Source of the DNA: Escherichia coli
Lineage (GTDB): Bacteria > Pseudomonadota > Gammaproteobacteria > Enterobacterales > Enterobacteriaceae
Length of the DNA: 64,000 bases
NCBI RefSeq assembly: GCF_045037415.1
Contig: NZ_CP173438.1
Direction: 5' to 3' (one strand)
Shown: one piece after another, positions 50,401-53,400 of the stretch
Layout: every line of letters starts with the position of its first letter
How positions within the stretch are numbered: the first letter of the stretch is position 1
Program-made: the position numbers

Positions 50401-53400
50401 ATAGTTTCTCTTTCCTGCTATACACTATCTCAATATTGCGCTTTTTTGAGATAAGCACATGGCTATCAAATCACCTCCCGGACTTATTCCTTTATCACAC
50501 TTATCGGGTGAGGAACTCCTGGCCCACCTGCGCTTTAACCGGGTTACCGATGAAAAAGGACGTTATCTGCCTTTTGATGAGTTGCAGTACCGCATCAAAA
50601 AAGGAGAAAACGTCGATGTGGCGTGGACGCTTACCCGTCTGGCGCGCAACGCGGCGATCCAACGAATTAATTATTGCAATGAAGCGGGTGAACAGGCCGG
50701 ATTCAACATTACCCCGGTGATTGCAGAAGCGTGCGAGCTTGTCGACAAACGTGCTACCGCGCTGGCGCTGAAAGATCAGACTGAACGGTTACGCGGGGCC
50801 GGAGCCGAGTTAAGCCAGTTACGCCTGGAAGAGCCGATCACCAGCTCCCAGCTGGAAGGTGCGAATACTACAACGCTGGTGGCGAGAAAAATGCTGGAAA
50901 CAGGGCGGTCGCCACGCACTGAAGACGAGCATATGATTGCGGGAAATGCCCGGCTGATGGCGGAAATTCCGCACTTACTCGCAGAACCGCTGACACCTGC
51001 GCTTATTCGCCAGTTACATGCCATTGGTATGGGTGGAATCAATGACGCGAAATATCGTCCGGGAGAATTTCGTGAAACAGATGATGTTGTGATCGCCGAC
51101 TATGATGGCAATATAGTGCATCAACCGCCCGCTGCGGCATTGTTACCGGAACGGCTGGAAAAAGTTTGCCAGTGGTTAAACAGCCATGAAGGGTATATTC
51201 ATCCGTTGGTCCGTGCCTGCATTCTGCATTTTATGCTGGCCCATGAACATCCGTTTCGGGATGGCAACGGGCGCACCAGTCGGGCGCTGTTTTACTGGTA
51301 TATGCTGAAATCGGGCTACGATGTCTTTAAATATATTTCCATCAGCCGTTTGCTTCATGCTGCACCGGTCAAATATGCCGCCAGCTACCAGTACACTGAA
51401 TCAGATGGTATGGATCTGACTTATTTCCTTGAATATCAGGCGGGTGTCATTAAACGTGCTCTGCAAAACTGGCAGCAGCATATCGATGAAATTACACAAC
51501 GAAGCGCAAAACTCGATAGTGTGCTGTTTAGCTCTGGTGTGCTTAAACGCCTGAATCCGCGCCAGGTAACGCTCCTGAATGTGATGCTCGCCAATCCGGG
51601 GAAAGAGTACACAGTTGCTGAAATTAGCGCGAGCTTGGGCGTCTCTGATAATACGGCTCGAGCTGATTTACGGACAATTGTTAAAGAAGGATTCGCGCAA
51701 GAGAAAAGAATTAATAACCAGCAAGCAGTGTACGTCGCACACTACCCGCTGTAGCTTTTGCCCGTAAATTCGTGATAGCCGTCGTAAAGCTGTTACCGAC
51801 TGGCGAAGATTTCGCCAGTCACGTCTACCCTTGTTATACCTCACACCGCAAGGAGACGATCATGACCAATAATCCCCCTTCAGCACAGATTAAGCCCGGC
51901 GAGTATGGTTTCCCCCTCAAATTAAAAGCCCGCTACGACAACTTTATCGGTGGCGAATGGGTAGCGCCTGCCGATGGCGAGTATTACCAGAACCTGACGC
52001 CGGTGACCGGGCAGCTACTGTGCGAAGTGGCGTCTTCGGGCAAACGAGACATCGATCTGGCGCTGGATGCTGCGCATAAAGTGAAAGATAAATGGGCGCA
52101 CACCTCGGTGCAGGATCGCGCGGCGATTCTGTTTAAGATTGCCGATCGAATGGAACAAAACCTTGAACTTTTAGCGACGGCAGAAACCTGGGATAACGGC
52201 AAACCCATTCGCGAAACCAGTGCTGCCGACGTGCCGCTGGCGATTGATCATTTTCGCTATTTCGCCTCGTGTATTCGGGCGCAGGAAGGTGGGATCAGTG
52301 AAGTGGATAGCGAAACCGTGGCCTATCATTTCCATGAACCGTTAGGCGTGGTGGGGCAGATTATCCCGTGGAACTTCCCGCTGCTGATGGCGAGCTGGAA
52401 AATGGCCCCCGCGCTGGCGGCGGGCAACTGTGTGGTGCTGAAACCCGCACGTCTTACTCCGCTTTCTGTACTGCTGCTAATGGAAATCGTCGGTGATTTA
52501 CTGCCGCCAGGGGTGGTGAACGTGGTCAATGGCGCAGGTGGGGAAATTGGCGAATATCTGGCGACCTCGAAACGCATCGCCAAAGTGGCGTTTACCGGCT
52601 CAACGGAAGTGGGCCAACAAATTATGCAATACGCCACGCAAAACATTATTCCGGTGACGCTGGAGCTGGGCGGCAAATCGCCAAATATCTTCTTTGCTGA
52701 TGTGATGGATGAAGAAGATGCCTTTTTCGATAAAGCGCTGGAAGGCTTTGCACTGTTTGCCTTTAACCAGGGCGAAGTTTGCACCTGTCCAAGCCGTGCT
52801 TTAGTGCAGGAGTCTATCTACGAACGCTTTATGGAACGCGCTATCCGCCGTGTCGAAAGCATTCGCAGCGGTAACCCGCTCGACAGCGTGACGCAAATGG
52901 GCGCGCAGGTTTCTTACGGGCAACTGGAAACCATCCTCAACTACATTGATATCGGTAAAAAAGAGGGCGCTGATGTGCTCACCGGCGGGCGACGTAAGCT
53001 GCTGGAAGGCGAACTGAAAGACGGCTACTACCTCGAACCGACGATTCTGTTTGGTCAGAACAATATGCGCGTGTTCCAGGAGGAGATTTTTGGCCCGGTG
53101 CTGGCGGTAACCACCTTCAAAACGATGGAAGAAGCGCTGGAGCTGGCGAACGATACGCAATATGGTCTGGGCGCGGGCGTCTGGAGCCGCAACGGTAATC
53201 TGGCCTATAAGATGGGGCGCGGCATTCAGGCAGGGCGCGTGTGGACCAACTGTTATCACGCTTACCCGGCACATGCGGCGTTTGGCGGCTACAAACAATC
53301 AGGCATTGGCCGTGAAACCCACAAAATGATGCTTGAGCATTACCAGCAAACCAAGTGCCTGCTGGTGAGCTACTCGGATAAACCGTTGGGGCTGTTCTGA

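Follow-up and report, generated by a model that had tools for sequence, protein, structure and literature searches.

A putative self-repressed Fic gene between yiaY and aldB of Escherichia coli, and the scar of its deletion from K-12

The stretch of Escherichia coli DNA analyzed here (64,000 nucleotides of contig NZ_CP173438.1, assembly GCF_045037415.1; hereafter the window) carries, in this order, selA, selB, yiaY, an open reading frame (ORF) of 431 codons, and aldB. This ORF (50459..51754, plus strand), whose product RefSeq annotates as a 'Fic family protein' (WP_000985737.1), is the fic gene considered here; its GC content of ~50% is similar to that of the neighboring genes. An earlier note, written from the sequence alone, had claimed a Fic-domain protein whose active-site motif is fully conserved, and profile comparison confirms this. 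The Pfam Fic profile (PF02661) matches residues 177-281 with E=1.7e-19, over model positions 1-92 of 93, and it is also matched by all 130 homologs of the window protein. The active-site motif HPFRDGNGRTSR (51248..51283, plus strand; residues 264-275, with H264 the catalytic histidine) fits the canonical AMPylation motif HxFx(D/E)GNGRxxR, and in the alignment of the 130 homologs, which share 30-76% identity, E133, G134, H264, G269, N270, G271, R272, and R275 are all invariant.

Two of these invariant residues belong to a second motif, SSQLEG (residues 129-134), which precedes the Fic core within one polypeptide and fits the class II consensus (S/T)xxxE(G/N). It ends a candidate inhibitory helix (50798..50860, plus strand; residues 114-134) that is helical from residue 114 to 132 in the predicted structure, and its S129 is nearly invariant across the clade alignment. 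When the protein is compared pairwise with human FICD by HMMER, E133 falls opposite the inhibitory glutamate and H264 opposite the catalytic histidine; these FICD residues, with chain indices 132 and 261, we take to be E234 and H363 (a construct offset of +102). E133 is thereby a predicted inhibitory glutamate, and the intramolecular, class II-type inhibition proposed in the earlier note keeps its footing. So does the helix-turn-helix-like segment that it had placed at the C-terminus. The AlphaFold model predicts both a Fic fold and a winged helix-turn-helix (wHTH) at residues 364-428 (51548..51742, plus strand), with a recognition helix at 397-409 bearing the conserved N-T-A-R-x-D-L, and hidden Markov model (HMM) alignment matches this region to the C-terminal domains of the characterized Fic proteins CbFic2 and SoFic.

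At the N-terminus, an extension of about 85-95 residues (50459..50743, plus strand; approximately residues 1-95), assigned to no Pfam family, is covered by all 130 clade representatives; P7, Y36, W56, and R63 are conserved in it, W56 and R63 without exception. It has no counterpart in SoFic, CccR, or EcSofic, and none of the solved structures matches it, these aligning to at most 328 of the 431 residues. In the alignment, residue 33 of SoFic pairs with residue 90 of the window protein, and the catalytic histidine stands at 264 here as against 194-198 in the SoFic family because of this extra conserved module of ~60-95 residues. To judge from these alignments, the protein is one of a large, uncharacterized clade, with at least 583 clusters at 50% identity (E<1e-30), whose members share the conserved extension.

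There is no antitoxin or partner gene adjacent to fic, in keeping with the view of the earlier note that none would be needed. The 129 bp upstream are occupied by the yiaY terminator and two candidate operators, and the 107 bp downstream (51755..51861, plus strand) are the aldB promoter and leader, which are common to K-12, are intact in genomes that have undergone the deletion described below, and are too small for an antitoxin gene. Two overlapping ORFs near the 3' end of fic, of 50 and 58 codons (51615-51767, plus strand; 51668-51844, minus strand), are presumed to be spurious. The orthologs of fic have differing and unrelated neighbor genes.

Upstream of fic, an intrinsic terminator of yiaY, a stem-loop followed by a T-run (50345..50370, plus strand), has the same sequence in the K-12 alignment and shields fic from yiaY read-through. 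Between this terminator and the fic ATG lie two palindromes of 28-34 bp, 50 bp apart. The distal inverted repeat (IR1; 50373..50406) reads AACTATCTCAAAA-N8-TTTTGAGATAGTT, with perfect 13-nt arms and a core TATCTCAA-N12-TTGAGATA at 50376-50403, and the proximal one (IR2; 50424..50453) reads ACTATCTCAA-N12-TTGAGATA. Both contain exactly TATCTCAA-N12-TTGAGATA and they are the only matches in the 64 kb even when three mismatches are allowed, with 0.21 expected. They frame a putative sigma-70 promoter (50396..50424, plus strand), composed of a -35 TTGAGA (50396-50401), a 17-nt spacer, and a -10 TATACA (50419-50424): the right arm of IR1 includes the putative -35, whereas IR2 is situated downstream of the -10 and ahead of the start codon, its right arm overlapping the likely ribosome-binding site.

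This architecture is preserved well beyond E. coli. The exact palindrome occurs in 7 of 84 loci, each time directly upstream of fic, in four orthologs from other species and three E. coli/E. albertii copies. In the Pseudescherichia, Salmonella diarizonae, Leclercia, Photorhabdus, Pantoea, Erwinia, and Buttiauxella orthologs, which sit in unrelated genomic contexts, the same palindrome ends 2-4 nt before the start codon; its arms are conserved, its spacers are variable, and several of these genomes keep the distal copy too. IR1 is conserved upstream of the orthologs in E. albertii, Pseudescherichia, S. diarizonae, and Leclercia, and IR2 is the copy kept in all close orthologs. Across five genera the right arm of the distal site consists of a -35-like TTGAGA (TTGCGA in Leclercia), and a -10-like TATA(A/C)(C/A/T), spaced 17-18 nt from it, adjoins the proximal site on its left arm; it is from these hexamers and their conserved spacing in five orthologous upstream regions that we infer the promoter. 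More distant members of the clade have palindromes of their own: TCACCTCAA-N12-TTGAGGTGA in Siccibacter and its relatives, CAACTCAATTT...AAATTGAGTTG in Pseudomonas and Alloalcanivorax, and AAATTGCGAGATT...AATCTCGCAATTT in the Bacteroidota. The mean inverted-repeat score upstream of clade members is 10.3, compared with 5.7 in shuffled sequence, and the wHTH sequences vary clade by clade in step with the palindromes. Because the palindrome travels with fic and changes alongside the DNA-binding domain, it is best explained as Fic's own operator. The wHTH thus probably shuts off its own promoter through IR1 and IR2, in the manner of CccR and SoFic. Two other sources for the palindromes were considered. 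A riboswitch or small RNA is unsupported, an Rfam scan of 50200-51950 at E<=1 having returned no match, and an mRNA hairpin that would mask the ribosome-binding site is unlikely, since most of the left arm of IR2 is untranscribed if the -10 is at 50419-50424.

The gene is present, always as one copy, in 1575 of 5426 complete E. coli genomes (29%), with sequence type ST131, O157:H7, and other pathogenic lineages among the carriers; coverage of the gene is 80% or higher in at least 1572 of these copies, and all 1579 placements of fic in the species are chromosomal. It is absent from K-12. In MG1655 yiaY and aldB are direct neighbors, as the earlier note held, and are 164 bp apart instead of the 1532 bp of the window. 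That note had also observed correctly that no mobility genes flank fic: integrase, insertion sequence, tRNA, and direct repeats are all lacking beside it. The conclusion then drawn, that fic was a single-gene accessory insertion, does not survive the comparison with other genomes. E. albertii carries an ortholog of 96% identity directly upstream of aldB. The synonymous divergence (dS) between the window and E. albertii is 0.31 for fic and 0.35 for aldB, and the ratio of nonsynonymous to synonymous divergence (dN/dS) of fic is 0.065 in this comparison and 0.065-0.19 overall. The equal dS of the two genes and the low dN/dS are the signature of a gene that has been inherited vertically, and kept by purifying selection, from a time before E. 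coli and E. albertii separated.

The empty sites themselves retain traces of the gene. A three-way alignment places the segment deleted in K-12 MG1655 at 50382..51749 (1368 bp), and the empty site reads ...TTTTTCAACTATCTC|TGTAACCC...; it keeps AACTATCTC, the left arm of the perfect 13-nt operator palindrome, fused to a TGTAA that corresponds to the TGTAG of the fic stop-codon region. A second empty allele, found in ~576 genomes and represented by strain MS20675 (locus L003), is known from that sequence and from the allele counts; it lacks about 50432-51749 and keeps the whole distal operator plus TTATCTC, followed by the same TGTAAC junction. As these empty sites carry an operator that is found upstream of fic in other genera, they are deletion scars. 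The short K-12 scar can, by its sequence, be derived from the long one through loss of the segment between two TATCTC repeats. The approximate allele frequencies are ~29% fic-positive, ~11% long scar, and ~59% short scar; these proportions are approximate because gapped alignments bridge the 36-bp difference, so that the K-12-type count (3355 genomes with at least 80% of the query covered) partly overlaps the long-scar class (576). On these alignments, fic is shown to have stood between yiaY and aldB in the common ancestor of E. coli and E. albertii, to be maintained by purifying selection, and to have been deleted in the lineage leading to K-12; within E. coli as a whole, at least one and possibly more deletion events removed it.

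Insertion by a mobile element was thus rejected in favor of a K-12 deletion, there being no flanking mobility features and a GC content like that of the neighbors. An origin from phage or plasmid was likewise rejected: there is no close homolog in 50,697 phage records, the best match having 36% identity over 71% of the protein, and all E. coli copies are chromosomal. The only plasmid match above 60% identity is on a Rahnella megaplasmid. A different rearrangement is seen in one public assembly, where a protein (P0099) joins Fic residues 1-168 in frame to the C-terminal part of AldB at a common 'LMA' tripeptide; it is either an independent microhomology deletion or an assembly chimera.

The combination of Fic with a C-terminal wHTH is well established, and several proteins of this group have been studied. 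CccR of Yersinia pseudotuberculosis (YPK_0951; PDB 7XUX) represses its own promoter via inverted repeats at -35/-10 and AMPylates FtsZ (PMC9755527). Like the window protein it combines Fic with a C-terminal HTH, and the layout of promoter and palindromes is the same, predicted in our case from the conserved operators. The two differ, however, in length (380 versus 431 residues, at ~18-20% identity), in operator (AGATAATCAT-N26-ATGATAATCT versus two copies of ACTATCTCAA-N12-TTGAGATAGT), and in setting, CccR being a secreted effector linked to a type VI secretion system (T6SS) that targets FtsZ, a context that is lacking for the window gene. SoFic of Shewanella oneidensis (SO_4266/MloA; PDB 3EQX, 3ZCN) binds DNA in the 100 bp that precede its gene and both AMPylates and de-AMPylates EF-Tu, the AMPylation requiring dimerization (bioRxiv 10.64898/2026.07.09.737422). 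The toxicity of EcSofic (E. coli H397) is lost when H194 is mutated, and a 47-residue downstream antitoxin has been proposed for this protein (PMC12249575). With 16-18% identity to SoFic and the EcSofic family, and with a score well below the cutoff of the NCBIfam ortholog test for SoFic, the window protein is a distant relative of both, and it has no AS1-like small ORF downstream such as the one in Sofic-AS1. The best PDB profile match (E 6e-30, profile positions 102-432) is CbFic2 of Coxiella burnetii (CBU_0822; PDB 8CIL), which covers the inhibitory helix, Fic core, and wHTH, and whose activity is switched by DNA-induced dimerization (PMC10628234). A bifunctional enzyme controlled by DNA binding and dimerization is, by analogy, a plausible model for the window protein; CbFic2 is nonetheless reported to act on host histone H3, binds DNA nonspecifically, lacks the N-terminal extension, and has 18-21% identity. 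The top single-sequence PDB match (E 2.6e-12) is the human class II enzyme FICD/HYPE, in which inhibitory glutamate and catalytic histidine align residue for residue, but which has TPR and transmembrane N-terminal regions, no wHTH, and the endoplasmic reticulum chaperone BiP as its target. The class I FicT/FicA pairs (EcFicT-EcFicA, VbhT-VbhA) resemble it in the Fic fold and in principle, a toxic AMPylase being restrained by an inhibitory glutamate; these and Sofic-AS1 are two-gene modules with an adjacent antitoxin gene, whereas none stands beside the window fic.

Taking together the motifs, the operator conservation, the ancestry, and the deletion, all of which were computed or read from the sequence, and the modeled fold and wHTH, we consider it likely that the locus is a self-contained, one-gene module: a class II autoinhibited Fic nucleotidyl/AMP-transferase whose wHTH represses its own promoter and which can arrest growth upon release of the Glu133 brake. 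In this scheme a Fic dimer would bind the two 28-bp operators (TATCTCAA-N12-TTGAGATA), one over the -35 and the other between the -10 and the start codon, and their occupancy would keep fic expression low; experiments have demonstrated this for CccR, and it has been suggested for SoFic. AMP transfer would be restrained by Glu133, a residue of the N-terminal inhibitory helix that may, if FICD, CbFic2, and SoFic are a guide, contribute to de-AMPylation as well. The brake could, for example, be released when the oligomeric state or the occupancy of the DNA changes, or when a signal is received via the clade-specific N-terminal extension. Once released, H264 would transfer AMP to an essential cytoplasmic protein and growth would stop; Fic relatives act on EF-Tu, FtsZ, or histone H3. 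The physiological role that we favor is that of a toxin-like growth-arrest switch that could serve either phage abortive infection or stress adaptation.

Several observations weigh against this interpretation. Identity to every characterized Fic-wHTH protein is just 17-21% (16-21% to the solved relatives), and the NCBIfam SoFic equivalog (NF046030) is matched with 40.3 bits against a cutoff of 550. The operator geometry, with 10-bp arms and a 12-bp spacer, is not that of CccR (10-bp arms, 26-bp spacer). The additional N-terminal 85-95 residues could alter dimerization, for which SoFic and CccR rely on the N-terminal helix. The putative -10 is weak and, as it lacks the terminal T, was missed by a consensus promoter scan. 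The placement of E133 in the active site, the DNA binding, the AMP transfer, the toxicity, and the target are themselves predictions from sequence. Some Fic enzymes, moreover, transfer groups other than AMP, and an M. marinum homolog (7cb8) was solved with cytidine diphosphate.

The strongest rival would narrow the role to defense: a single-gene, SoFic-type abortive infection system whose autoinhibition is lifted by phage infection, so that the infected cell dies or is arrested through AMPylation of one of its own proteins or of a phage protein. We hold this to be possible, though the balance of evidence leans against it. SoFic-family proteins have been reported as single-gene anti-phage systems, SoFic as a standalone Fic-domain defense protein (bioRxiv 10.1101/2022.05.11.491447), and EcSofic is toxic (PMC12249575). 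The PADLOC SoFic HMM matches the window protein with E=1.1e-43 (148 bits; residues 96-427, model positions 30-351 of 361), so that defense-annotation pipelines presumably label it SoFic. The patchy distribution in E. coli with repeated loss points the same way, as do a Klebsiella homolog of 49% identity in an integrase/AlpA/DUF927-primase element with the appearance of a P4-like satellite, a Salmonella ortholog on a conjugative element (AcaB, TraG), and the few clade members on viral contigs and plasmids. The window protein is, however, no ortholog of the validated proteins by the equivalog score given above (40 versus 550 bits), and phmmer relates it to SoFic, and to 9vjc (a 358-residue 'Protein adenylyltransferase' chain), with an E of only ~1e-7. 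Furthermore, the Escherichia gene lies between metabolic genes, outside defense islands and mobile elements, the phage records hold no close homolog, and the vertical descent since the E. albertii split, the dN/dS of 0.065, and the absence of allelic replacement by other systems are atypical of defense hotspots.

That same vertical history favors another explanation, which we regard as doubtful: an endogenous, bifunctional AMPylase/de-AMPylase and transcription factor that tunes housekeeping processes such as translation or division to physiological signals, unrelated to phage. Long residence at a core-genome position under strong purifying selection agrees with it, and in Pseudescherichia and P. 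syringae, too, the homolog is a single gene flanked by housekeeping genes. EF-Tu is reversibly AMPylated by SoFic, for which a function in growth rate has been suggested (bioRxiv 10.64898/2026.07.09.737422); in addition, the inhibitory glutamate, which FICD-type enzymes need for de-AMPylation, is invariant. But the gene is dispensable, ~70% of complete E. coli genomes being without it after at least one and possibly more deletion events, and as no further operator match exists within the 64-kb window there is no evidence of a regulon beyond fic itself.

A more speculative proposal, to which we give still less credence, concerns the clade as a whole. The Fic-wHTH proteins of 430-460 residues with the N-terminal extension might constitute a functionally distinct clade. 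The extension would then recognize the signal or the target for a one-gene, self-repressed switch that brings about growth arrest or abortive infection, and this target would be neither EF-Tu nor FtsZ. The presence/absence polymorphism in E. coli, with K-12 as a scar-bearing natural null, would make this reading directly testable.

It is highly improbable that the protein is a secreted interbacterial effector delivered by a T6SS and acting as toxin and regulator in recipients, as Yersinia CccR does, since there are no T6SS, effector, or immunity genes within 8 kb on either side of fic or beside the orthologs examined, and CccR has just ~18-20% identity and no N-terminal extension. Least credible of all is a decaying remnant without current function, for although fic is lost from most E. 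coli and one assembly has the in-frame fic(1-168)::aldB fusion, at least 1572 of 1575 copies span 80% or more of the gene, dN/dS is 0.065-0.19, the catalytic and inhibitory residues are all intact, and the operators are perfectly palindromic.

The gene is much less novel than it might seem from the earlier note, which mentioned neither the operators nor the literature on Fic-wHTH proteins (SoFic, CccR, CbFic2, EcSofic). Although we found no paper on this particular fic gene, it is a further member, at most a distinct subclade, of a known group, is already annotated as a 'Fic family protein', fits published mechanisms, and is otherwise an ordinary finding. What is added here is a predicted arrangement of operators and promoter, an N-terminal extension peculiar to the clade, and the deletion scar in K-12. 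The last of these corrects a tempting misreading, that a gene absent from K-12 must have been inserted elsewhere, when it is the K-12 reference that holds the scar. Should the predictions hold, the locus would make the Fic-wHTH class readily accessible to study in E. coli, with a defined operator, a natural null host in K-12, and a clade-specific N-terminal domain.

The neighborhood of fic shows additional variation. The K-12 pseudogenes ysaC and ysaD (L002 2814-3110) appear to be remnants of window genes in 53577-58815: ysaD (L002 2918-3107) matches the 3' end of a GH127 glycoside hydrolase gene (window 53688-53877, 88% identity), and ysaC, in a block matching the region beside sgbE/araD, is probably the end of an AraC-family regulator. 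From these remnants it follows that K-12 deleted most of the GH127-MFS-AraC cluster (about 53878-57898). K-12 has yiaT-U-V-W between ysaD and aldB, genes that are absent from the window. The GH127 gene (53577-55598, minus strand) is frameshifted according to RefSeq in the 100%-identical genome SK1144 (pseudo coding sequence of 1970 nt) and intact (654 residues) in strain MS20675; the long GH127 ORF of the window has its first codon, a TTG, ahead of the annotated start, a sign that the gene may be frameshifted close to its 5' end. MS20675, which carries the long fic scar, has a HicA/HicB toxin-antitoxin pair between aldB and the GH127 gene (L003 10935-11547) that is absent from the window and from K-12, a further small presence/absence polymorphism near fic.

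Among the more distant relatives, the 49%-identical Klebsiella homolog (L091-L094, gene at 7001-8362) lies immediately downstream of a DUF927 primase in an element that also holds an integrase, an AlpA-like HTH_17 protein, and Bro-N/AntA. Its position resembles a P4-like satellite cargo site, and a conserved 58-codon ORF is found ~510 bp downstream of it. The P. syringae homolog (L095-L097, 7001-9614; 42% identity) adjoins an Fe-ADH gene, as E. coli fic adjoins yiaY, itself Fe-ADH; the P. syringae pair is convergent rather than tandem, and the shared neighbor is therefore probably a coincidence. Elsewhere in the window, yibI/yibH (43468-44976; DUF3302 and HlyD family) are 69% identical in DNA to K-12 yiaW/yiaV, the two being paralogous pairs that flank the same region. 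Finally, short repeats at 32378-32466, 40794-40890, and 53503-53537 match (74-91% identity) a K-12 segment just downstream of aldB (L002 6856-6946) and look like intergenic repeats of the REP (repetitive extragenic palindromic)/BIME (bacterial interspersed mosaic element) type.

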